From: a virus | Taxonomy: Duplodnaviria; Heunggongvirae; Uroviricota; Caudoviricetes | Strand: one strand, 5' to 3' | Virus record (IMG/VR): IMGVR_UViG_2728369607_000007 | Span: 1-50,260 of that record | DNA length: 50,260 bases | In this document: positions 1 to 48,714 of the stretch, piece after piece | How positions within the stretch are numbered: position 1 is the first letter of the stretch | How the letters are laid out: each line of letters begins with the position of its first letter | Translations under genes and position numbers: made by a program | Notes under the pieces: generated by a model | Databases searched by the model: none | Seen by the model: only the letters and a program-made list of their open reading frames with translations | What the model was told of the DNA's origin: nothing

Positions 1-1509
1 AGCCGTCTTAACCATCCGAAAGCGGACCTGTCAAAGGGGCAGTACGGAACCGTGGGGCAGGGGCTGCATATCGCCAAAAAACTGCTGCCGTTTATACCGG
101 CGAATGCGGGTATTCTGCTGGTTCCGTGCTGTCGTGGTGGTTCAGCGTTCACCACCGGAGCTGATGGCACATACAGTGACGCTGGCGGTGCCTCGGAGAA
201 TTCAGCGCGCTGGGGTGTGGACAAGCCGCTGTATAAGGACCTTATCGGTCGAACAAAAGCAGCACTGAAGAAGAACCCGAAAAATGTGCTGTTTACCGTG
301 GTGTGGATGCAGGGGGAATTTGATTTTGACGGCACGCCCGGAAATCACGCAGCACAGTTTGGTGCGCTGGTTGATAAATTCCGTGCAGACCTGACGGATA
401 TGGCAGGTCAGTGCGTTGGTGGCTCTGCTGGCGGTGTTCCCTGGATATGCGGGGACACGACGTATTTCTGGAAGCAGAAGAACGAATCCACGTACCAGAC
501 GGTGTACGGCAGCTATAAAAACAAAACGGAAAAGAATATCCATTTCGTACCGTTCATGACGGATGAGAACGGGGTGAATGTGCCGACGAACAAACCGGAA
601 GAAGACCCGGACATTCCGGGTATCGGGTATTACGGTTCGAAATGGCGTGACAGCTCAGCCACCTGGACGTCACAGGACAGGGCGAGCCATTTCAGCACCT
701 GGGCACGCCGGGGGATTATTTCCGACCGTCTGGCAACGGCGATTCTGATTCATGCGGGACGAACCACAGTAAAAGTCGATGCTCCATCTTCTGAAACTGG
801 CGCACCGACGCCATCACCGTCAGAAAATGAAGCGGTAAGCACAACAACACTGCTGTCTTACCGTGCCAGTGAGTCTGAAGGGAGGCTGACCGAACAGGGC
901 TGGAGTGCTGGCGGAGGTAAAGCGGAAATTGTTGCCGATGAAGGTGCAACAGGTGGTACCGCGATGAAGCTGAGCAAGGAGACAGGAGTGGGGTCATGGT
1001 ATCTGGAGCATGATGCCGGTACTGGCGCTGAACTGCTGAAAAATGGCGGTTTAATCAGCTGCCGCTTTAAGGCATCCGGTGAACTGGTAGCAAATCAGTA
1101 TGTCATTGCACTTTACTGGCCGGTTTCCTCTCTGCCGCAGGGTGTCACCCTGACAGGGGATGCAGGGAATAATCTGCTGGCAGCGTTTTACATCCAGACA
1201 GATGCAAAAGACCTGAATGTGATGTACCACAATGCGAAGGTGGCGACAAATAACCTGAAACTGGGAAGCTTTGGCGCATTTGATAACGAATGGCATACGC
1301 TGGCTTTCCGCTTTGCCGGGAATAACAGCCTTCAGGTGACGCCGGTTATTGATGGTCAGGATGGCACACCGTTCACGCTGACGCAGTCACCGGTCAGTGC
1401 ATTTTCGGCGGATAAGTTGCATGTGACAGATATTACCAAAAGTGCGACTTACCCGGTACTGATAGACAGCATTGCGGTGGTAGTGAATAACGCGGACGCC
1501 GCGGCATGA
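1..1509 (+). CDS. Prophage sialate O-acetylesterase-like protein (SASA/NanS-type), 5-prime truncated by window edge
   Basis: Reading frame open from nt 1 (no stop upstream of the GTG at 52); sequence resembles prophage esterases found upstream of lysis genes in lambdoid phages; position just before the holin. Confidence 0.5.
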   Translation, partial: SRLNHPKADLSKGQYGTVGQGLHIAKKLLPFIPANAGILLVPCCRGGSAFTTGADGTYSDAGGASENSARWGVDKPLYKDLIGRTKAALKKNPKNVLFTVVWMQGEFDFDGTPGNHAAQFGALVDKFRADLTDMAGQCVGGSAGGVPWICGDTTYFWKQKNESTYQTVYGSYKNKTEKNIHFVPFMTDENGVNVPTNKPEEDPDIPGIGYYGSKWRDSSATWTSQDRASHFSTWARRGIISDRLATAILIHAGRTTVKVDAPSSETGAPTPSPSENEAVSTTTLLSYRASESEGRLTEQGWSAGGGKAEIVADEGATGGTAMKLSKETGVGSWYLEHDAGTGAELLKNGGLISCRFKASGELVANQYVIALYWPVSSLPQGVTLTGDAGNNLLAAFYIQTDAKDLNVMYHNAKVATNNLKLGSFGAFDNEWHTLAFRFAGNNSLQVTPVIDGQDGTPFTLTQSPVSAFSADKLHVTDITKSATYPVLIDSIAVVVNNADAAA

Positions 1510-26390: not shown

Positions 26391-27062
26391 ATGAATCTTA
26401 AAAATCTGCAACGTTATACTCCTGAGAAGTCGGATGTTCCGGGGGCAATGTACCTGAAGGCAGAGGATGGCCGTGACTGGTATGAAAGCCAGTCGTCATT
26501 TAAGGCGGATACGCTGAAGCTGGTTTATGACAGCGAAGGCATAATCACGAGTATCAGTAAGGATGTGTCGATGCTGTGGCCAGTGGGACAGAGTGTGGTG
26601 GAGGTTGAGGATACAGAAGAAAACCGCAAAGCTGATATCTCCGGGCGCTGGAAGTTTGACGGGGAAAAAGTCGTTGATACTCTGACCGCGGAGAAAGCGC
26701 GCGGGATGAAGGGCGATGAAATAAACGCGTGGCGTAATGCGATGGAGGCGGCGAACTACACGTTTGAGCACAATGGCCGGAAATGGGACTACGGAAAGTC
26801 AACGCAGACGCGCCTTGAGCCATCGGTGGCGGCAGCGAAAGCGGGGAAACTGCCGGAGGCGTTTTTCTGGACGGATGCGGAAAACAATGATGTGCCGGTG
26901 ACAGCAGAAGAGCTTCTTGCGCTGAGTGAAGCGGCAGAGCAGGCGATGTTCACTAAAGGGATGGAAATCCACATTCGCCAGCGCACCATGAAGAAGGACC
27001 TGGAATCGCTGAGCAGTGCGGATGAGATCCTGGCATACAGGGTTGGCTGGGCACAGGAATAA
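26391..27062 (+). CDS. Tail fibre assembly protein (Tfa chaperone)
   Basis: Position after tail fibre; motifs typical of Mu/P2-type Tfa (WYE.Q..F..DTLK.VYD..G.I…DVS…ADISG.W.F). Confidence 0.6.
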   Translation: MNLKNLQRYTPEKSDVPGAMYLKAEDGRDWYESQSSFKADTLKLVYDSEGIITSISKDVSMLWPVGQSVVEVEDTEENRKADISGRWKFDGEKVVDTLTAEKARGMKGDEINAWRNAMEAANYTFEHNGRKWDYGKSTQTRLEPSVAAAKAGKLPEAFFWTDAENNDVPVTAEELLALSEAAEQAMFTKGMEIHIRQRTMKKDLESLSSADEILAYRVGWAQE

Positions 27063-27226
27063 CAGACAAAAAGATGGGGGACCATCACTTCCCCCATGAA
27101 CTGCGTTGATTATGTCATTATTGTGAAGAGACCTTACCTACACAGATAAAGAATGCCACGGAAAAGTTAATTCCGGAAGTGACGGAAATCTCATTTTTCG
27201 TGCATCCTGTTGATATGGATGATTTT

Positions 27227-27556
27227 TCAGATTTCCGGAAGTCCGTATTTTGCCCGGGCGCGGTTGCATGCTTCATTCGCGATGCCATTTTCTCCGGACA
27301 TTGCGAATTCCCGGCATGTGGACGGACGGTTTTTGTAAACAGAGCAATATGCGTTTTCACCCGGAGTTCCCGCCAGAGCGACACATCGGGGATTTTTCTG
27401 ACTTGTGCCGCGCATACAGCGATGAAAGGGGGATATTTGCTCAGTGAGACTGACCGGAACCTTTCCGCCAGCATCGTCAGCTTCTGCCCAGTAAAAAGAG
27501 ACGCGGAAAAATGCACAACAGGCACCACACGTCATGCATGGATTCGGATTGTTCAT
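27227..27556 (-). CDS. YkgJ-family Cys-cluster (zinc/iron-chelating, UPF0153) protein
   Basis: [11 protein letters not shown] motif plus additional conserved Cys; no obvious SD; located at prophage right end. Confidence 0.5.
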
Positions 27557-27654
27557 TTTTATACTATTTGTTGTTTTTTCAGCGATCAGATCAAAGGGCG
27601 CTGAAAAAAAACATTCTCCAAAATTAGATTATAACTATTTGATTTTATGGATAG

Positions 27655-27690
27655 AGGCATGCTTTTTACGCAAAAGTAAAAAGCATGCCA
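27655..27690. terminator. Perfect 14-bp-stem hairpin GGCATGCTTTTTAC-N6-GTAAAAAGCATGCC near prophage/chromosome junction
   Basis: Seen directly; lies just downstream of potB stop on the minus strand. Confidence 0.4.
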
Positions 27691-27721
27691 AATTTGCTAT
27701 TAACTCTTTGAATATTCAGCA

Positions 27722-28585
27722 CTAATCATCTATTTCGGTTGCCTTCTTATTCAGCAGACGAGAAGCGCGCCAGTAAACCAGCAACATCAGGCCCATTACG
27801 ATAGTCAGCGTAATGCTGGTGGCTGCACCAAACGGCCAGTCACGAATATTGAGGAACTGTACCTTGATGACGTTACCGATCAGCAGGTTTTTCGCACCGC
27901 CCATCAGGTCGGACACATAGAACAGGCCCATCGCTGGCAGCATCACCAGCAGACATCCGGCAATAATTCCCGGCATCGTCAGTGGAATAATGATACGGAT
28001 AAAAGTCTGTAACTTGCTGGCACCGAGATCGCGCGCTGCCTCAAGCAACGGCTTATCCAGTTTTTCGATACTGGAATACAGCGGCATCACCATAAACGGC
28101 AGCAGAATGTAAACCAGACCGATAATCACCGCACTGGGCGTGAACATGATGCGAATTGGTGTATCTATAACGCCCAGCCAGAGCAAAAACTCGTTGAGAT
28201 AGCCTTTGGTGCTGAGGAAAATTTTCAGCCCGTAGATACGAATCAATGAGTTGGTCCAGAAGGGAACAATCAGCAGAAACAGCAGCAGCGGACGCACCTT
28301 GTGTGGCAGCTTCGCCAGAAACCAGGCAAACGGGTAGCCCAGCACCAGGCAGGCGAGGGTGGCGATCAGCGCCATATTCAGCGAGTGCAATAGCACTTCA
28401 AAATAGAGCGGATCGAGCAGACGCGTATAGTTATCCAGCGTAAAGACCATTTTGACGAAACTGGCGTCGTCGCGGGTCAAAAAGCTGGTGCCAATGATCA
28501 TCAGGTTGGGCAGAAAGACAAACAACACAAGCCAACCGACAATAGTGACAATCACTACATTCTGGAACTTACTTGTGTTCTTCAT
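27722..28585 (-). CDS. potB: Spermidine/putrescine ABC transporter permease PotB
   Basis: Near-identity to E. coli PotB over ~280 aa; no potC downstream, so operon is interrupted by the prophage. Confidence 0.9.
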
Positions 28586-29705
28586 CAGCCAGTACGACCT
28601 CCCAGCTTTCTACCCAATTAATGGCCATTTTTTGGTCGAGAGAGTGGTCAAAGTCAGGATCGTCTTCATTGAAGAATTCGCTGACCATCACCATCTTGCC
28701 ATTTTCCAGTTCAACAACCGACTCCAGCGTCATGCCTTTGTAGTTACGCTCGCGAACGTAACCAATTAGCCCTTCAGCGTGGTTGTCGTCGTTAATCTCT
28801 TCAACACGTAAGTCTTCCGGGCGCAGCAGAACATGCAGTTTTTGCCCCGGTTCAACGGCGAAGTTAACGTAGATATTACATTCGCGGCCTTCAACGTTGG
28901 CGCGTACGCGCTGCTCGTCGAGACGTTCGATGACCGTTGCGTTAAACATATTGATTTCGCCAATGAACCCGGCAACAAACAGGTTTTTCGGCTCTTCGTA
29001 GATTTCACGCGGCGTGCCGTCTTGCTCGATGCGACCATCGCGCATCACCACAATCCTGTCTGACATGGTGAGTGCTTCTTCCTGGTCGTGAGTCACGAAG
29101 ACGAATGTAATGCCAAGCTTACGCTGTAACGCTTTCAGCTCGTTCTGCATTTGCTTACGCAGTTTGTAATCCAGCGCTGAGAGCGACTCATCCAGCAACA
29201 AAAGACGAGGCTTGTTAACCACCGCACGGGCAATGGCGACGCGTTGCTGTTGACCACCAGAGAGCTGATGCGGTTTACGTTGAGCGAAGGTTTCCAGCTG
29301 CACCATCCGCAGGGCTTCCATAACGCGGGGCGTAATTTCAGCAGCGGGGGTTTTTTGCATGCGCAACCCAAAGGCCACATTTTCGAACACGGTCATGTGG
29401 GGGAAAAGTGCGTAGCTTTGGAAAACAGTGTTCACATAGCGGTTTTCCGCCGGAACGTGGGTGATGTCCTCGTTATCCAGCATGATGCGTCCGGAATCAA
29501 CAGTTTCCAGACCTGCAATCAGGCGAAGAACGGTTGTTTTACCGCAGCCAGAAGGGCCAAGCAGCGTGAGGAACTCGCCATTGTTGATAGTCAGATCCAG
29601 CTGGGGAATGACCTCTTTACCATCAAAGCATTTGCGAATTCCCGCCAATTGCACCAGCGGTGAAAGCGAACTCGGTTGTTTATTCAATTTTTTACTCTGT
29701 CCCAT
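28569..29705 (-). CDS. potA: Spermidine/putrescine ABC transporter ATPase PotA
   Basis: Walker [13 protein letters not shown] signature LSGGQQQR; matches E. coli PotA. Confidence 0.95.
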
Positions 29706-40679: not shown

Positions 40680-40702
40680 GCCGGAGCAATCCGGCTTTTT
40701 TT
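40680..40702 (+). terminator. Rho-independent terminator (GCCGGAGCAATCCGGC + T-run); second copy at ~41025-41047
   Basis: Perfect 6-bp stem, 4-nt loop, 7 T. Confidence 0.6.
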
Positions 40703-40797
40703 GCGTCATTTGAAATGGTATGGCGCACTACTGGCTTTTCGTCACGGTCCGGCATAGTTACTATCTGAAACAAACAGACACAACAGAGGAAAAAACA

Positions 40798-41022
40798 ATG
40801 CCGACGAAATTTGATGAGATATTAAAACAGCGTGATAAATACCATGCTGACAACATGGAGACGATGAACATCACTGATTACCGCGCATTCCTGGAAACGG
40901 GGGCGCTGATTGAAAAGGATCATCATGGTTTTGTTCGTTGCGCGCTATCCGGTGAAATGCTGGCGGTAAATCCTGAACAGACAGATGCATTGATAGAATT
41001 TCTGAAAGGGATCAGGGACTGA
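40798..41022 (+). CDS. Hypothetical protein (74 aa)
   Basis: Internal ATG of ORF 40720..41022 with GAGGAAAA RBS; followed by terminator copy. Confidence 0.4.
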   Translation: MPTKFDEILKQRDKYHADNMETMNITDYRAFLETGALIEKDHHGFVRCALSGEMLAVNPEQTDALIEFLKGIRD

Positions 41023-41313
41023 GCACCCATACAGCCGGAGCAATCCGGCTTTTTGTTATTTTTTGTAAATTATTTGTTCGTGGTTGTTCCACGTTGTTCA
41101 CTGAGCGGATCGGCATATTTTACCCGAACTGAATCATGATTATTCTCGCCCGTGGTGCCAGGACGCTGGGGCCACTTTCCCGCCTGTTAATGTGCTCGCC
41201 AATATTCATTACCAGGCGGGAAAACGATCGGTGCGATTGCTGATTCCCTTATGAAAAACGGTTGAGTTTTTGCCGCGTCCTGGAGTTCCTTACTTAACCC
41301 CAGGACTTTTTTT

Positions 41314-42471
41314 ATGCCGAGAATAATCGAATTACGCCAGCAGAAAACCGCCATTAAAAATCAGATGCGCGACATGCTGGAGAACGCGGAAAAAGAAAAC
41401 CGCAGTCTTAACGATGCTGAGGGCGCAAAATTTGACGAATTACGCGCTAAAGCTGAATCCCTCGATAAAGACATTTCCCGCCTTGAAGCCATTGCAGACG
41501 AAGAGCGCAGCAAGCCAGGTAAAAGCAGCCAGACCACTGACCCCGCAGAACTACGCAGCTACATTCTGACAGGTGAAACCCGCGCATTAAGTACAGGCGT
41601 TCCCGCTGATGGTGGTTATACCGTTATCCCCGAACTGAACACCGAAATCATGCGAATGCTGGCGGATGAGTCCACCATGCGCCGCATCTGTACCGTGAAA
41701 AAAATCAGCAGCAACGAGTTTAAGCAGCTTGTTTCCGCTGGCGGTGCGACCGTTAACCACGGTGAAGAGGGTAAGGCACGCGAACAGACCAGCACCCCGC
41801 AGATTAACGAGGTGAGCATTAAGCTGTATCCGGTCTATGCGTACCCGCGCACCACACAGGAAATCGTGGATTTTTCCGATGTGGACATCCTTTCATGGCT
41901 GACGGGTGAGATTGGCGACACCTTCACGGAAACCGAAGAAAGCGATCTGGTTGTGGGCGACGGTGACAAAAAAGCAAAAGGTTTTTTATCCGTACCCCGT
42001 GCAGAGAAGAACGACAAAGAGCGTGATTTTGGTACGTTGCAGGTAATTAAACCTTCCGAATCTCTGGCGTGGACATCTGCGGACCCGCTGATCGACCTGA
42101 AATTTGCATTACGTAAAAAATACCGCAAAAACGCGGTCTGGGTGGTTAACTCCACGACGGCGGCAAAACTCCAGAAGGTGAAGAACGCGAACGGTGATTA
42201 CATCTGGCGTGACCGTTTACAGGCGGGTGATCCTGATACGTTGCTGGGCCTTCCGGTCGAATATCTGGAGTTTATGCCTGATAACGTTATTGCCCTGGGT
42301 GACTTCAAACGCGGTTACTACATTGTTGATCACGAAACAGGTGTTCGCACCAGACCGGACAACCTCACAGAGCCGGGCTTCATCAAAATTTTCACGCAGA
42401 AATATTTAGGCGGTGGCGTGGTGGATTCGAACGCGATCAAGATTCTGGAACTGCCACAGGACGACGATTAA
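41314..42471 (+). CDS. Major capsid protein, HK97 fold/family
   Basis: 385 aa with N-terminal coiled-coil delta-like region and HK97-type capsid core; followed by protease and portal. Confidence 0.8.
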   Translation: MPRIIELRQQKTAIKNQMRDMLENAEKENRSLNDAEGAKFDELRAKAESLDKDISRLEAIADEERSKPGKSSQTTDPAELRSYILTGETRALSTGVPADGGYTVIPELNTEIMRMLADESTMRRICTVKKISSNEFKQLVSAGGATVNHGEEGKAREQTSTPQINEVSIKLYPVYAYPRTTQEIVDFSDVDILSWLTGEIGDTFTETEESDLVVGDGDKKAKGFLSVPRAEKNDKERDFGTLQVIKPSESLAWTSADPLIDLKFALRKKYRKNAVWVVNSTTAAKLQKVKNANGDYIWRDRLQAGDPDTLLGLPVEYLEFMPDNVIALGDFKRGYYIVDHETGVRTRPDNLTEPGFIKIFTQKYLGGGVVDSNAIKILELPQDDD

Positions 42472-42510
42472 CAGCATACAGAAGGGGCTTAAAAGCCCCT
42501 TTAGTGTTTT

Positions 42511-43083
42511 ATGGGTGAAAAAATTATGAAGAGTATGGAAATCCGGTCATCGGAAATCACCACCAGCGGCAGCAACACGCTTACAGGCTACGTTGTTCGC
42601 TGGGATAAGCTTTCAGAACTGTTATGGGGTGAGTTTTACGAAAAATTCCAGCGGGGGGCGTTTACTGAATGGCTTGCGGCGGGTAATGACGTTCGCGGCC
42701 TGTATGAGCATGACCACAGTATGTTACTGGGGCGCACCCGTTCCGGCACGCTGAAACTGGAAGAGGATGAAACAGGGTTACGCTTTGAACTGACCCCACC
42801 GGATACCAGTACAGGGCGCGACGTTATCGAACTGGTTAAACGTGGTGATATATCCGGCATGAGCTTTGGCTTTCGCTCCCGTAAGGATGTATGGGATACC
42901 ACAACAGATCCATGCGTGCGCACCGTGCTGGTGGCGGAACTGTACGAAATTACCGTTACATCGGTACCGGCTTACCCCGATTCCGGCGTGGAGCTGGCCC
43001 GCCGTTCCCTGTATGAGCAGCACCCCGAAAAAATGCCGCGTGCGGATAATCGCCGCTGGTGGGTGGATTTAGCGGGGGTGTGA
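42511..43083 (+). CDS. Prohead maturation protease (HK97 family)
   Basis: HK97 gp4-like pattern (…LYEHD.S.LLGRT…G.D….G.ISGMSFGF…); alternative starts at 42526 or 42535. Confidence 0.75.
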   Translation: MGEKIMKSMEIRSSEITTSGSNTLTGYVVRWDKLSELLWGEFYEKFQRGAFTEWLAAGNDVRGLYEHDHSMLLGRTRSGTLKLEEDETGLRFELTPPDTSTGRDVIELVKRGDISGMSFGFRSRKDVWDTTTDPCVRTVLVAELYEITVTSVPAYPDSGVELARRSLYEQHPEKMPRADNRRWWVDLAGV

Positions 43084-43084
43084 T

Positions 43085-44296
43085 ATGTGGCCTTTCAGAA
43101 GAAAAAAAGAGCAGCGCAGCATGACGCTTGATGAATTTATGGCGCTGGCTGGCACATCGAACACGGGGGCGGGTGAATACGTATCATCGGGGACAGCGGA
43201 ATCACTGCCTGCCGTCATGAACGCCGTTACGGTCATCTCTGAGGCGGTGGCTACTATGCCATGCTACCTGTACCTGGTACGCAATGAGAAGGGGAAGGAG
43301 GCCCGCGAGTGGCTTGATTCTCATCCGGTCGATCACATCCTCAACGAGCGCCCGAACGCATGGCAAACCCCCTACCAGTTTAAGCGAATGATGATCCGCC
43401 ACTGCCTGTTAAACGGTAATGCTTATGCGGTTATTCAGTGGGGGCGTGATGGTTTTCCGGCGGCTTTACATCCTTACCCGCCGCAGTCGGTGAACGTGGA
43501 GCAGACAGGCGAACACAACTGGCGCTATTGCATCACTGACGCCTACACCGGAAACACCCACAACTATTTACCGTGGGAAGTACTTCACCTTCGTTACTCC
43601 ACGGATGACGGCTTTATGGGGCGCTCACCTGTAACCATCTGCCGCGAATCGCTGGGGCTTGGGCTGGCCCAACAACGCCACGGCGCGAGCGTGATGCGTG
43701 ATGGCATGATGGCGGCAGGGGTTATCACGTCAGGCGAATGGCTGGACGGCGTGAAGGGCAAACAGGCATTAGCCGCACTGGAACGCTACAAAGGGGCCAG
43801 AAACGCCGGAAAAACGCCCATCCTTGAAGGGGGGATGAGCTATCAGCAGCTGGGCATGAGTAATCAGGATGCTGAATGGCTGGCCTCCCGTCGCTTTACC
43901 ATTGAAGACATCGCCCGAATGTTCAACGTCTCGCCGATTTTTTTGCAGGAATACAGCAACAGCACCTACAGCAATTTCAGCGAGGCAAGCCGCGCATTTC
44001 TCACCATGACGATGCGCCCGTGGCTGGCGAACTTTGAGCAGCAGATAAAAAACGCCCTGCTGGTGGCCTCGCCTGTACCTGGTATCCGGTATCAGGTGGA
44101 GTTTGACAGCGCGGACCTGTTACGGGCCACACCTGGCGAACGCTTTGCCACCTATGAGCGCGGCATCAAATCCGGCGTTATGTGCCCGAACGAAGCCCGC
44201 GAACGTGAAGGACTGTCACCGCGTGATGGTGGTGATGAGTTCAGTCAGGCATGGAAACAGGAAGTAAAAATCAGCGAGGGAGAAAAACCGGAATGA
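43085..44296 (+). CDS. Portal protein (HK97 family)
   Basis: 403 aa, HK97-type portal pattern; gene order. Confidence 0.8.
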   Translation: MWPFRRKKEQRSMTLDEFMALAGTSNTGAGEYVSSGTAESLPAVMNAVTVISEAVATMPCYLYLVRNEKGKEAREWLDSHPVDHILNERPNAWQTPYQFKRMMIRHCLLNGNAYAVIQWGRDGFPAALHPYPPQSVNVEQTGEHNWRYCITDAYTGNTHNYLPWEVLHLRYSTDDGFMGRSPVTICRESLGLGLAQQRHGASVMRDGMMAAGVITSGEWLDGVKGKQALAALERYKGARNAGKTPILEGGMSYQQLGMSNQDAEWLASRRFTIEDIARMFNVSPIFLQEYSNSTYSNFSEASRAFLTMTMRPWLANFEQQIKNALLVASPVPGIRYQVEFDSADLLRATPGERFATYERGIKSGVMCPNEAREREGLSPRDGGDEFSQAWKQEVKISEGEKPE

Positions 44297-44631
44297 ACAT
44301 AGGGCGACTGCGTGACAGGATAACGATTCAGACCCTGAAACAGACCAGAGCCATGACGGGCGAAATACTCGAAACGTGGGAGGACGGTCACACACTCTGG
44401 GCAAGCGTGAACATGATCAGCAGCAAGGAGGCCATTTCATCGGGCGCAGAGCTGGCGATTGGTACCGTAAGGATCTGGATACGGTACCGGAAGGACATCA
44501 ACGCCACCAGCCGGATAAAGGTCAGTACGGGGCCGCTGGCGGGGCGTGTACTGAATATCATCGGGCAGCCGTTGCCGGATGTCGCCAGGACACGCCTTGA
44601 AATTCTTTGTCGTGAGGGCGCGGAAAAATGA
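44293..44631 (+). CDS. Head-tail adaptor/head closure protein
   Basis: ~112 aa; conserved RDRITIQ … IRYR pattern; start overlaps portal stop. Confidence 0.6.
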   Translation: MNIGRLRDRITIQTLKQTRAMTGEILETWEDGHTLWASVNMISSKEAISSGAELAIGTVRIWIRYRKDINATSRIKVSTGPLAGRVLNIIGQPLPDVARTRLEILCREGAEK

Positions 44632-44924
44632 CAGAAGAACTTATCACCCTGGAAGAAGTGAAACTCCATTGCCGTATCGATGGAGACGAGGAAGACCAGT
44701 TAATCAGCGGATACATTGCCGCATCGCTTGAGGCGTGCCAGATACACATAGGCAGGCGCTTTGATGACGGGCTGGAGTTCACGCCAGCCATAAAGATTGG
44801 CTGCATGATGTTTATCGCTCACCTGTATGAGAATCGCCAGATTGTCGCGGATAACGCAAAAACACGCGTACCCATGACGATTGGCGCACTCTGGACGGCT
44901 TACCGTGATGTGGGGGTGTACTGA
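44628..44924 (+). CDS. Head-tail connector protein (gp6-like)
   Basis: 98 aa; position and N-terminal pattern of gp6-like connectors. Confidence 0.55.
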   Translation: MTEELITLEEVKLHCRIDGDEEDQLISGYIAASLEACQIHIGRRFDDGLEFTPAIKIGCMMFIAHLYENRQIVADNAKTRVPMTIGALWTAYRDVGVY

Positions 44925-45364
44925 TGCCGTGGCAACCATTAAGACGATGCACAGAACCAGGCTGTAACAGGCGCGTTAAATCCGGCAAGTGTGAGGAGCA
45001 CAGGCGGGCAGCATGGCGTGCAGAGGATGCCAGACGAGGACACCGCCGCGCGCGTGGATATTCCAGACAGTGGGACAAATACCGCGCCATGTATCTGAGT
45101 AAAAACCCGTTATGCGTGCGATGCCTTGAGAAGGGGATATATACGCCCGCCGTGGTGGTGGATCACATTATCCCGATTAATGGCGGTGATGATGTTCTCT
45201 TCTGGCCCGAATGGAACCATCAACCATTGTGCCAGGCGTGTCATAACCAGAAAACGAAATGGCTTGATCCGGCAACAAAAAGCAAGCGTGCCGCAGGTGG
45301 ATTTCGTGAAGAGGAAGAACGGGCCGCTAACCGCAATAACTGGATGTATGACGCTGATGAATGA
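44924..45364 (+). CDS. HNH endonuclease (terminase-associated)
   Basis: Cys-rich zinc-finger and HNH motif (…VDHIIPINGG…WN.QPLCQACHN.K); immediately upstream of terminase genes. Confidence 0.8.
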   Translation: MPWQPLRRCTEPGCNRRVKSGKCEEHRRAAWRAEDARRGHRRARGYSRQWDKYRAMYLSKNPLCVRCLEKGIYTPAVVVDHIIPINGGDDVLFWPEWNHQPLCQACHNQKTKWLDPATKSKRAAGGFREEEERAANRNNWMYDADE

Positions 45365-45653
45365 GCGGGAACAAAACCGCCTTATCCGTGGACTTATAAG
45401 GCAGCGTGACGCATGGAAGACACAGGAAACAGGGCATAAAGATAAAGCGTCAGGACGCGCAGAACGCATCACAGCGAAGCGATTAACCGACCGTGACCGC
45501 GAGGTTATGGAATGTTTCCGCAATCGCTGATGAGGCTGTATGACGGGGTGGGGGGCGTTTTCAGGACAAACCCGACCCCGCCGGGCACCGAACGCCTCCT
45601 CAAATTTTTATGCACGGGAATTTTTTGAAAAATAATCTGGCGAAAAAATAAGC

Positions 45654-46010
45654 ATGTCAAGACCACCGAAAGCCCCCGCCTACCTGGATGATATCGCCGT
45701 GAAGCAGTGGCGGGAAAAATCTAGGCAGCTTGCGGAACGGGGAGACCTGACCCCCGCCGACTGGAGCAATCTGGAACTGTATTGTGTCAACTACTCCATT
45801 TACCGGAAAGCCGTTGCAGACCTTGCGGCGCGCGGGTTCAGCATTGTTAACAGTCAGGGCGGTGAGAGCAGAAACCCCGCATTAAGCGCAAAATCCGACG
45901 CTGAAAGAGTGATGATAAAAATGGCCTCTTTGCTCGGTTTTGACCCGATAAGCCGCCGTAAAAATCCACCGGAAACAGAAGAAGAGGACGAGCTTGACCG
46001 CCTGGAATAA
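45654..46010 (+). CDS. Terminase small subunit (P27 family)
   Basis: 118 aa, P27-type TerS pattern; overlaps TerL start. Confidence 0.7.
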   Translation: MSRPPKAPAYLDDIAVKQWREKSRQLAERGDLTPADWSNLELYCVNYSIYRKAVADLAARGFSIVNSQGGESRNPALSAKSDAERVMIKMASLLGFDPISRRKNPPETEEEDELDRLE

Positions 46011-47655
46011 GTACGCAGAAGACGTAAAAACGGGCAAAATTCCGGCCTGTAAACGGCTGAAACAGGCCGTTAAACGGTACTTTTCGGACCTTGAAAGCCC
46101 CCTTTACACGTTCGATCGTGAGGTTGTGGAGCGGTTTATTGCCTTTTCCAGGGTGTGCCCGCACGTAAAAGGGCCGATGCGTGGCAGATCCATTGAGCTG
46201 GAGCCGTGGCAGCAGTTCGCCTTTGCGTGCATCCTCGGCTTTAAGGTTAAGGCCACCGGACGGCGCAAATACACGAGCGCCTTTATCGAAGTGCCGCGCA
46301 AAAATGCGAAATCCACGACCGCCGCGATTCTGGCTAACTGGTTTCTGATTATGGAGAACGGGCAGCAGGATATTTACACCGCAGCGGTGAGCCGTGACCA
46401 GGCGCGGATCGTTTTTGATGATGCGCGTCAGATGTGCCTTTTATCCCGACCGTTACGCAGGCGGGTGAATATTCAGGCCCACAAGGTGATGCACCCGAAA
46501 AGCAACAGCCTGTTAAAGCCGCTGGCAGCAAAAGCGGCAACCATCGAGGGCACAAACCCAAGCCTTTCCATCGTGGACGAATACCACCTACACCCCGATA
46601 ACGGCGTTTATTCCGCGCTTGAGCTGGGGATGGGCGCACGTCCCGAAGGGCTGTTATTTGCCATTACCACATCGGGCAGTAACGTCGTTTCAGCCTGTAA
46701 GCAGCACTATGATTATTGCTGCCAGATCCTGGACGGCGAAGAGGTCAACGATTCAATTTTTGTGCTGATTTACGAGCTGGACGACGAAAACGAGGTTGAT
46801 GATCCGGCGATGTGGATAAAGGCTAACCCTAACATCGATGTTTCCGTGGATCGTGAAAAACTGGCCTCAACCATCCAGAAAGCGCGGGGTATTCCGTCGC
46901 AATGGGTGGAGATGATGACAAAGCGATTTAATATCTGGTGCCAGGGGGCTACCCCGTGGATGGGTAACGGCGCATGGGCTGAGTGTGCCGGAACGTTCAC
47001 GGAGGAAGATTTACACGGGCAGGAGTGTTACGCGGGGCTGGACTTATCATCAACCAGCGATATTTCCAGCGTGTGCTATGCCTTTCCGGTCGGTAAAAAT
47101 ATCATGCTGGTTTCCCGTCATTATCTGCCGGAGTTCCAGCTACAGAACCCCGCCAATAAAAACCGCGCTGTCTATCGCCAGTGGGCTAAAGCGGGCTGGA
47201 TACGCACAACGCCAGGTGACTGCATTGATTACGACCGGATCAGAGATGACATCATGCAGGATGCGGAGAAATTTAATATCAGGCTGGTGGGCTTTGATAC
47301 GTGGAACGCCACGCATCTCAGGACGCAATTACAGGGGGCTGGTTTTGAGGTGGAGCCGTTCCCGCAAACCTACCTCAGATTCAGTCCGGCGGCGAAATCG
47401 TTCGAAGTTTTTGTTAACCGCAGGGTGATTGTGCATCGTGGCGATCCGGTGTTGTCCTGGTCGATGAGTAACGTCGTGATGCAGAGTGACGCGAACGCCA
47501 ATATCAAGCCGAACAAGAAAAAATCACCGAACAAGATAGACCCGAGCGTAGCGGCGCTGATGGCGTTTGGTACATTCCAGGCAGAGCATGAGGATTTTGC
47601 TTTTGATATAAGCGACAGCCACCGCCAGAAACTGGAAGAATTTAGCGGGGTGTAA
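45994..47655 (+). CDS. Terminase large subunit
   Basis: 553 aa, ATPase and nuclease regions; start is TTG in the ORF track (true start uncertain). Confidence 0.85.
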   Translation: MTAWNKYAEDVKTGKIPACKRLKQAVKRYFSDLESPLYTFDREVVERFIAFSRVCPHVKGPMRGRSIELEPWQQFAFACILGFKVKATGRRKYTSAFIEVPRKNAKSTTAAILANWFLIMENGQQDIYTAAVSRDQARIVFDDARQMCLLSRPLRRRVNIQAHKVMHPKSNSLLKPLAAKAATIEGTNPSLSIVDEYHLHPDNGVYSALELGMGARPEGLLFAITTSGSNVVSACKQHYDYCCQILDGEEVNDSIFVLIYELDDENEVDDPAMWIKANPNIDVSVDREKLASTIQKARGIPSQWVEMMTKRFNIWCQGATPWMGNGAWAECAGTFTEEDLHGQECYAGLDLSSTSDISSVCYAFPVGKNIMLVSRHYLPEFQLQNPANKNRAVYRQWAKAGWIRTTPGDCIDYDRIRDDIMQDAEKFNIRLVGFDTWNATHLRTQLQGAGFEVEPFPQTYLRFSPAAKSFEVFVNRRVIVHRGDPVLSWSMSNVVMQSDANANIKPNKKKSPNKIDPSVAALMAFGTFQAEHEDFAFDISDSHRQKLEEFSGV

Positions 47656-47668
47656 TGAGGTCAGCAGC

Positions 47669-47950
47669 ATGACAGAAGCCGAAATACTGCGATTAATCCG
47701 CCGCGTCTCTGGAATCAGCCAGCAGGCTGACGAACAGACCACGCAGCCGGACAGCGTGACAGCCGAAAATTATGCGCGTGTTGTTGCTGAGGTGATGCGC
47801 CGTGATGGTATCCAGCTTAATGATGCGGATATGCGCGACATACGGATCCGCGTTCTGGAAATGCTGGCCTACAATCGCCGCGTTGAACTGTATCGGGAGA
47901 AGGAGAAAATCACGTACCACTGGAAGAAGCCGGAGCGGTTACGGCGGTAA
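47669..47950 (+). CDS. Hypothetical protein (93 aa)
   Basis: ORF-track ATG directly after TerL. Confidence 0.4.
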   Translation: MTEAEILRLIRRVSGISQQADEQTTQPDSVTAENYARVVAEVMRRDGIQLNDADMRDIRIRVLEMLAYNRRVELYREKEKITYHWKKPERLRR

Positions 47951-48334
47951 CTTGTTGATTAAAAGGCGGCTCAATTCTGAGCTGGGTAGCTGACGGCGGT
48001 AACTGTTTGATATTCCCGATAACGCAAAATTGCGCTGGCTACATCCCTCACATCTGAGGACTGTTAACCAGCAGGCCGGAATATATTCACAAACTACGAA
48101 ATTTTCGTAGTTTAATTACTCGCCAGTTTATCGTTAACTAGTTGATATTTTCGGAAACCTCAATTTGAGGAAGTCGGCGCGGTAACTGTTTTATATTCCC
48201 GATAGCGCAAAAATGCGCGGTCGGGCAGAATGAGCACCACCTCAATCGTGACGGAGAGTGACAACCAGTGACACACCGTGACAAAAAGACGGTTTAACCG
48301 TTCATTAAAAATCGACGTGATTTTGTGCTTTCCG

Positions 48335-48362
48335 GATGACGTGGCCAACGTCATTTTTTAGC
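48335..48362 (+). terminator. Hairpin GATGACGT-ggcca-ACGTCAT followed by T-run
   Basis: Seen directly. Confidence 0.5.
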
Positions 48363-48693
48363 GAAAAATTCTGATTAAGGTCACTGGCTGAATGGTCATA
48401 ATGACCACGCAGACCATCGAGGCAACCATAGCGATCATCGTTACGGTTGGAGCTTTTCCGCCATTGGTGGAAAAGGTGCACATCTGGATCATCATTACGG
48501 TGATCAAGGGTATGTAAAACCCACCAGCCTGATTAAAGGTTAACCGGAAAAAAAATCCGGTAGCCCCGTTATGGGGATCCCCATATCGACATTAACGCCC
48601 CTCATGAATTGGTGCGCTTCCCCCTGGAAAGATTACCCGCCTGTATATTTCTTGTGTCTATTTGTTCCACGTTGTTTCATACAGTGCACCGAA

Positions 48694-48714
48694 CGGTGTA
48701 GTTAATGGTGTAGT
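48694..48714 (+). repeat. attR core direct repeat CGGTGTAGTTAATGGTGTAGT
   Basis: Identical to 32653-32673. Confidence 0.7.

Follow-up and report, generated by a model that had tools for sequence, protein, structure and literature searches.

The DNA analysed here, referred to below as the window, is a 50,260-bp IMG/VR entry classed as a 'provirus', and no further genome stands behind the entry. Two genes of potABCD, which is described as one operon driven from upstream of potA, lie on its minus strand. The first, potA (29705-28569), encodes an intact ABC ATPase of 378 aa with ABC_tran and TOBE_2 domains. The second, potB (28585-27722), encodes a BPD_transp_1 permease of 287 aa, of which residues 1-281 are 100% identical to K-12 PotB and which is treated below as a hybrid gene. 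To the right of potAB lie pepT and roxA, arranged as in K-12. When K-12 potCD DNA was used as a query against the 50,260-bp record, potC was found to be absent beyond potB and nothing else matched. A preliminary description of this DNA had reported that potA and potB are intact and that potC does not follow, and the annotation and the query bear this out.

Leftward from potB there is a spacer of 165 bp (27557-27721) with 29.7% GC, compared with 50% for potB, and then a cargo gene of the YkgJ family (CxxCxxCC; PF03692, E = 5e-12) at 27556-27227, on the minus strand like potAB. These correspond to the AT-rich DNA and the phage cargo that the same description had placed after potB. Beyond them lie a DUF4376 gene, a gene for a collagen-repeat tail fibre, and J. 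From the ORF map and Pfam assignments, positions 1 to 27746 (plus strand) comprise the late, structural half of a lambdoid prophage, which runs from a 5'-cut SASA/DUF6645 esterase gene to J, the tail fibre gene and the DUF4376 gene; the left half of the prophage, with attL, int and xis, falls outside the record. A scan of 27000-28000 for consensus promoters returned none. An ORF of 63 aa on the plus strand (27534-27725) was rejected as a gene, because indels break its frame in related arms, and an inverted repeat (T6-CAGCG...CGCTG-A8; 27574-27609) was not retained, because it lacks conservation in the O157-type arm. A GC-rich hairpin at 27073-27097, ATGGGGGA...TCCCCCAT, separates the convergent DUF4376 and YkgJ-family genes; a T run comes after it on the minus strand, and it is probably the terminator of the cargo gene.

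The gene order of the prophage half is that of the Stx1a prophage of strain STEC1587 (NZ_CP129259.1), which belongs to a series described as carrying an Stx1a prophage integrated at potC (PMC10675304). The two sequences are 99.9% identical over window positions 27100-28600 and share the cargo gene (annotated in STEC1587 as 'YkgJ family cysteine cluster protein'), the hairpin discussed below, the size of the hybrid potB (864 nt) and the tail fibre and DUF4376 genes. In STEC1587, however, the esterase gene lies ~2.4 kb farther from attR, so that the late regions of the two differ. The first position of the record falls within the esterase gene (window 1-1509), whose STEC1587 counterpart lies directly downstream of the stx1 genes. 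The window therefore covers only the late half of the prophage and begins past the position of stx. In other prophages at this site the place of the cargo gene is taken by espK, by DUF1076 and chaperone genes, or by a methyltransferase gene. In the O157:H7 strain F8797 (locus L007, ~1350-1400, aligned to window 27530-27556) the first nine codons of the YkgJ-family gene (MSNPNPCMT...) and the region upstream of it are kept before the sequences diverge, and the nearest annotated gene past this divergence in O157-type prophages is espK. This pattern of alignment indicates that the cargo was replaced in the O157-type prophages by recombination just inside the old cargo gene.

A second mobile element occupies 32679-48700, between roxA and phoQ. 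Its genes include an integrase (32679-33929), an AAA_25 helicase-like protein, the C4 and isrK RNAs (36183-36368), an HK97 capsid protein, a prohead protease, a portal protein and TerL, and no tail genes were found within 32679-48700. It is a capsid-forming phage satellite. The 'provirus' record is therefore a composite that combines half a prophage with ~5 kb of host genes and this separate satellite.

The att core, the crossover and the 3' end of potB

Alignment of K-12 attB with the attR of the window and the attL of STEC1587 revealed a shared block, CCTT(C/T)TTATTCA, at window 27742-27753. This identity block, CCTTCTTATTCA in the window, is common to attB, attL, attR and attP; it was found in K-12 attB, in the window attR, in four attL sequences and in three attP contigs. 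The 12-bp core occurs once in the window, compared with 0.02 occurrences expected by chance. The potB side of the junction has a match in every complete E. coli genome. In K-12-like genomes the match begins only at window 27742, but in STEC1587 it extends over the full 1.5 kb at 99.9%. The intact attP sequences came from a pattern scan of IMG/VR that yielded 16 loci, three of which (L019, L028 and L031) proved to be uninterrupted attP sites; on these three contigs the order is P arm, CCTTCTTATTCA, and then TAAGGCGG of the P' arm. The attR/attP pattern had zero matches in GTDB species representatives. The shared block and the 99.9% match to the STEC1587 junction support the claim, made from the window alone, that a right prophage junction here separates potAB from potCD. 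The alignment with an uninterrupted locus that had been proposed as a check both defined the att core and revealed that the 3' end of potB is supplied by the phage.

The position of the crossover within this block can be approached through a polymorphism of the host. Empty attB sites are dimorphic, reading CCTTC...GCAAACG in K-12 and CCTTT...GCAGACG in ~1334 genomes, including E. coli B and one O157:H7 strain with an empty site. The change (window 27746 and 27757) is a synonymous one at a Lys codon of potB. The GCAGACG flank is found in the window and in all four lysogens that were examined at both junctions. In these four lysogens, which carry the GCAGACG haplotype, the host T is retained at attL, while a C stands at this position in all the attR and attP sequences read; the C at 27746 is thus the phage allele. 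A host T at attL together with a phage C at attR and attP places the exchange rightward of 27746. The alternative, in which the T at attL is the phage allele and the crossover falls within CCTT, is ruled out by the C in the intact attP contigs and by the T in the ~1334 empty sites. The overlap is accordingly placed at 27747-27753 (TTATTCA), a 7-bp interval, which is also the overlap length of lambda-type integrases, and on these alignments the true right boundary of the prophage is 27746/27747. In lysogens of the T haplotype, with the phage C at attR and the host T at attL, the site therefore records the side of the overlap from which each base came.

The 25 nt at 27722-27746 (minus strand) are on this basis the phage-supplied 3' end of potB, comprising the third base of the K280 codon, K281, the residues A-T-E-I-D-D and a TAG stop. 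In translation, the PotB tail of the window reads ...NKKATEIDD (287 aa) and that of K-12 ...LLNKKVELE (285 aa). The target ORF thus stays open with a phage-encoded C-terminus, ATEIDD*, in place of VELE*, as expected when a prophage reconstitutes the gene into which it inserts, and potB is intact because its 3' end is supplied by the phage. The differing annotations of potB, 287 aa in lysogens and 285 aa in K-12, are thereby explained. The TGA of K-12 potB overlaps the ATG of potC (ATGA), and the 7-bp overlap of the att site lies 15-21 nt upstream of this native stop. The insertion, which had been assigned to the potB/potC boundary, is therefore inside potB, as both the alignment and the translations make clear. 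Among the other arm types found at this site the PotB tail is ATEIDN (O157), ATEIDD (type C) or VSELDD (type D), with the stop at an identical position. The sequences compared here point to a copy of the potB 3' end in the phage attP that is diverged and has nevertheless been conservatively maintained.

The lambda site lies between gal and bio, and no gene is reconstituted there. Phage 21 and e14, which integrate at icd, and the phages of tRNA genes carry a duplicate of the target's 3' end in attP (Campbell's insertion-site reviews). The present prophage resembles these latter elements in that it has integrated in the 3' end of a gene and provides a substitute 3' end that keeps the frame open. 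Unlike the icd and tRNA targets, potB is internal to a four-gene operon and shares a 4-bp overlap, ATGA, with the next gene. Because of this internal position, integration also uncouples two downstream genes from the operon promoter.

As a whole, we regard it as very probable that window 27560-27760 is the attR of a prophage with a lambda-type tyrosine integrase, integrated in the last codons of E. coli potB. In the proposed mechanism, a phage attP with a diverged copy of the potB 3' end would recombine with attB within TTATTCA (27747-27753). This exchange would swap the native ...KKVELE* for ...KKATEIDD* and leave potB open. The genes potC and potD would be displaced to the other end of the prophage, ~46.6 kb away in the closest complete genome, where they would lie directly downstream of xis-int and in the same orientation.

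The other end of the prophage and the occupancy of the site

The gene order in STEC1587 is potB, a 46.6-kb Stx1a lambdoid prophage, xis, int, potC and potD. An exo-xis-int module stands at the far end of this prophage, with int 166 bp upstream of potC and transcribed in the same direction. Likewise, in F8797, in strain 127 and in Sakai, as in STEC1587, xis and a gene for an Arm-DNA-binding integrase lie directly beside attL and potC. The Shine-Dalgarno sequence and start codon of potC are untouched at attL; the PotC protein accession is that of K-12 in each of six lysogens checked, and the same holds for PotD in STEC1587. From these near-identical junctions elsewhere we infer the positions of attL, int and potCD in the genome from which the window derives, and the predicted junction at its other end would be int-P'-CCTTYTTATTCA-potC. 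In strains EL361 (L016, 572-1220) and 7_12_15B (L018, 400-1048), the P' arm of attL is separated from int by ~1 kb of additional DNA, in which a DUF2335 gene and a hypothetical gene lie on the opposite strand; direct adjacency of int and potC is thus not universal. O157 strains are known in which an inversion has taken place between the potC prophage and a second prophage (PMC10925052).

A further feature of attL is that a phage base, A, joined to the TG of the core creates an ORF of eight codons, ATG AAT AAA AAG GTG GAA CTC GAA TGA (MNKKVELE*). It lies at 47728-47754 of the STEC1587 locus (L006) and is identical in L015, L017 and L018, and hence in all four attL sequences read. Its stop codon overlaps the potC ATG exactly as does the native stop of potB. 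No obvious Shine-Dalgarno sequence precedes the mini-ORF. It may be a by-product, or it may maintain translational coupling to potC.

The site is empty in 3800 of 5426 complete E. coli genomes, one O157:H7 strain among them, and the exact attL type is present in 1624 of the same 5426 (~30%), including Sp6 of O157:H7 Sakai. Taken together, these counts imply that one att/int family explains essentially all interruptions of the locus. Sp6 and the 'PP_potB' or potC-site prophages of O157, O145 and other STEC share with the present prophage the site, attL and the xis-int module, and in the Sakai record the feature 'prophage Sp6; lambda-like phage' starts 11 bp from the start of potC. The integration site at potB/potC is in fact long known and common, and the mechanism is textbook. 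It is cited as a site of prophages and of Stx phages in a passage of PMC8065619 that refers to Steyert et al., it is the 'PP_potB' of PMC9997748, and it appears also in PMC7067040, PMC11052207 and PMC10925052. What the present analysis shows directly is where the junction, the core and the crossover interval lie, that potB is reconstituted, and how often the site is occupied.

The P arm and its hairpin

The P arm comprises ~140 bp of AT-rich DNA left of the core and contains one candidate arm-type site, an IHF consensus, a 51-bp spacer and a core-proximal block. The candidate arm-type integrase site, TTTTGGAGA, lies at 27615-27623 on the minus strand and is the sole match in the window. In attL, the P' arm beside int contains three direct repeats, TTTTGGGGA, TTTTGGAGA and TTTTGGAGA, and with respect to these the P-arm motif is inverted, its plus-strand reading being TCTCCAAAA. 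The motif is invariant in all attR and attP types, although a given 9-mer is expected about once per window by chance. At 27632-27644 (minus strand) AATCAAATAGTTA fits the IHF consensus WATCAANNNNTTR exactly and is a putative IHF site; the consensus is kept in divergent arms, as AATCAAACAGTTG in O157 and as AATCAATCAATTG in type D. These motifs are what would be expected of Int and IHF sites, and binding of the two proteins is inferred. The core-proximal block (27702-27741) is conserved between the otherwise unrelated arm types A-C and D and contains the phage copy of the potB 3' end. This attP thus resembles that of lambda in having an arm-binding tyrosine integrase, putative arm-type repeats on both sides of a short core, a putative IHF consensus in the P arm and a 7-bp overlap. 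The O157-type attR arm (type B) is ~86-95% identical to that of the window, and the two differ in their cargo (espK versus the YkgJ-family gene), in the hairpin, which in O157 has one mismatch and another loop, and in the last residue of PotB, N versus D.

Between the arm/IHF block and the core-proximal block, within the 51-bp variable spacer, lies a perfect inverted repeat of 14 bp with a 6-nt loop (27656-27689), formed by GGCATGCTTTTTAC (27656-27669) and GTAAAAAGCATGCC (27676-27689) with 100% complementarity. The hairpin had been noted before at 27655-27690; the perfect 14-bp stem is as described, but each of these limits is one base too far out. The repeat is real and non-random. Across the whole window only one other perfect inverted repeat of at least 12 nt, within 40 nt, was detected, and when a 171-nt segment spanning the spacer was folded the z-score was -4.6 and the 14-bp stem appeared in the MFE as well as the centroid structure. 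The exact hairpin sequence is single-copy and occurs in 83 of the 5426 genomes. In the lysogen it lies 32 nt past the hybrid potB stop, and in attP it lies ~55 nt beyond the core on the int strand. The surrounding spacer is the least conserved part of the arm; its length is exactly 51 bp across arm types and its sequence is not conserved. The type C hairpin has two mismatches, and in type B the change in the loop adds a base pair. The type D spacer is unrelated and contains, in the same place, a weaker hairpin of 7 bp that decays in variants. With an imperfect hairpin in types B and C and a different, weaker and decaying one in type D, these comparisons do not demonstrate selection for it. A rho-independent terminator was taken to require a GC-rich stem with at least 5 U in the 8 nt after it. 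No U tract follows the hairpin on either strand, and of the four terminator-like sites called in a scan of 27000-28000 none is at 27656-27689. A search of Rfam 15 found no family at the junction, and its only hits in the window were the C4 and isrK RNAs of the satellite. A literature search for Term-seq work on EHEC yielded no usable table of 3' ends.

To judge from its position and fold, the likeliest role for the hairpin would be as a barrier or as the 3'-end element of a transcript. After integration it might define the 3' end of the potAB' transcript and insulate it, blocking host read-through into the cargo gene and into antisense transcription of the tail genes. The hairpin is suitably located for this, since it follows the hybrid potB stop on the strand of potAB and precedes the cargo start; the fold is stable, and a hairpin occupies the same place even in the unrelated spacer of type D. 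The absence of a U tract and the silence of the terminator scan speak against termination, however, and since the cargo gene is on the same strand, its co-transcription with potAB' would do no obvious harm. We consider this proposal tentative and, on the evidence above, somewhat unlikely. A role in the free phage, analogous to that of sib/tI in lambda, is a good deal less likely. An int transcript that crosses attP would meet the hairpin, with termination or RNase III-dependent decay of int mRNA as the outcome, and integration would carry the hairpin away to the far end of the prophage, behind potB, and free int from this control. On the attP contigs int, the P' arm, the core and the hairpin are indeed collinear on one strand, integration separates the hairpin from int, and there are zero terminator-like sites from the int stop to the core. 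The sib/tI hairpin is likewise on the P-arm side of the lambda attP, on the int strand. But in lambda the hairpin is outside the arm sites and has a U run, whereas the present one is between the IHF and arm sites and the core and has none. A 14-bp stem is also short for RNase III, and the structure has neither the extended stem nor the form of an intrinsic terminator. Furthermore, the stem mismatches in types B and C are uncompensated, variants of type D lose the hairpin, and no Rfam family is recognised.

It is quite possible, although we stop short of calling it probable, that the palindrome has no function of its own and is present by chance or by hitch-hiking in a spacer whose length, and not its sequence, matters for the geometry of attP. 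The constant length of so poorly conserved a spacer is what this predicts, and the mismatches have accumulated without compensation. The excisionase, WP_000003742.1, is identical in prophages of types A, B and D despite their differing spacers, which also implies that the spacer is not a sequence-specific Xis site. A perfect 14-bp repeat is nevertheless expected by chance at only ~1e-3 per 50 kb, on a rough estimate, and the rarity of such repeats in the window and the base pair gained in the type B loop also speak against this reading.

Expression of potCD in lysogens

The preliminary description had also proposed that the insertion makes the transporter operon polar. In EDL933 the prophage genes Z1764-Z1829 lie between potC and potB/potA, and expression data for the flanking pot genes are available from an array study of this strain (PMC2907692, supplementary file 1). 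The log2 signals in the wild type and in an rpoS mutant were, respectively, 11.7 and 13.4 for potC (Z1763), 10.1 and 12.0 for potA (Z1831), and 7.8 and 10.9 for potB (Z1830). It follows that potC is clearly transcribed in this lysogen, and its strong signal, in the one expression data set located, contradicts the proposal.

A model in which the prophage silences potCD draws on the ~46 kb of DNA that intervenes and on a search of the 2 kb before potC in STEC1587, in which no sigma-70 consensus promoter was found on the potC strand. The array signal for potC exceeds those of potA and potB, however, and rises with both in the rpoS mutant. In addition, int is co-directional with potC and no terminator-like site was predicted between them in STEC1587; the potC Shine-Dalgarno sequence and start are intact, as are potC and potD themselves in lysogens, and 30% of genomes have an occupied site. 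Silencing is therefore improbable. A polar effect on the operon is not supported, and reduced or altered expression of potCD is conceivable. With neither a promoter nor a terminator recognised between int and potC, read-through from the int region is the simplest guess as to how potCD are transcribed.

A more elaborate proposal, to which we give little credence, has the att arms rewiring the split operon. In this view the hairpin of the P arm would act as the 3'-end element of potAB' in the lysogen and as a sib-like limiter of int in the free phage, while the P' arm would put potCD under read-through from the int region, with the mini-ORF keeping the coupling to potC for which potB is normally responsible. 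If this were true, the supply of PotCD in 30% of E. coli would depend on prophage transcription.

The value of these results lies mainly in annotation. The boundary of the prophage is fixed, and the 12-bp core, together with the host C/T dimorphism, provides a typing marker for the site. Some occupied sites carry Shiga-toxin phages, and whether the expression of PotCD is altered in lysogens is a fair, if unsurprising, physiological question.
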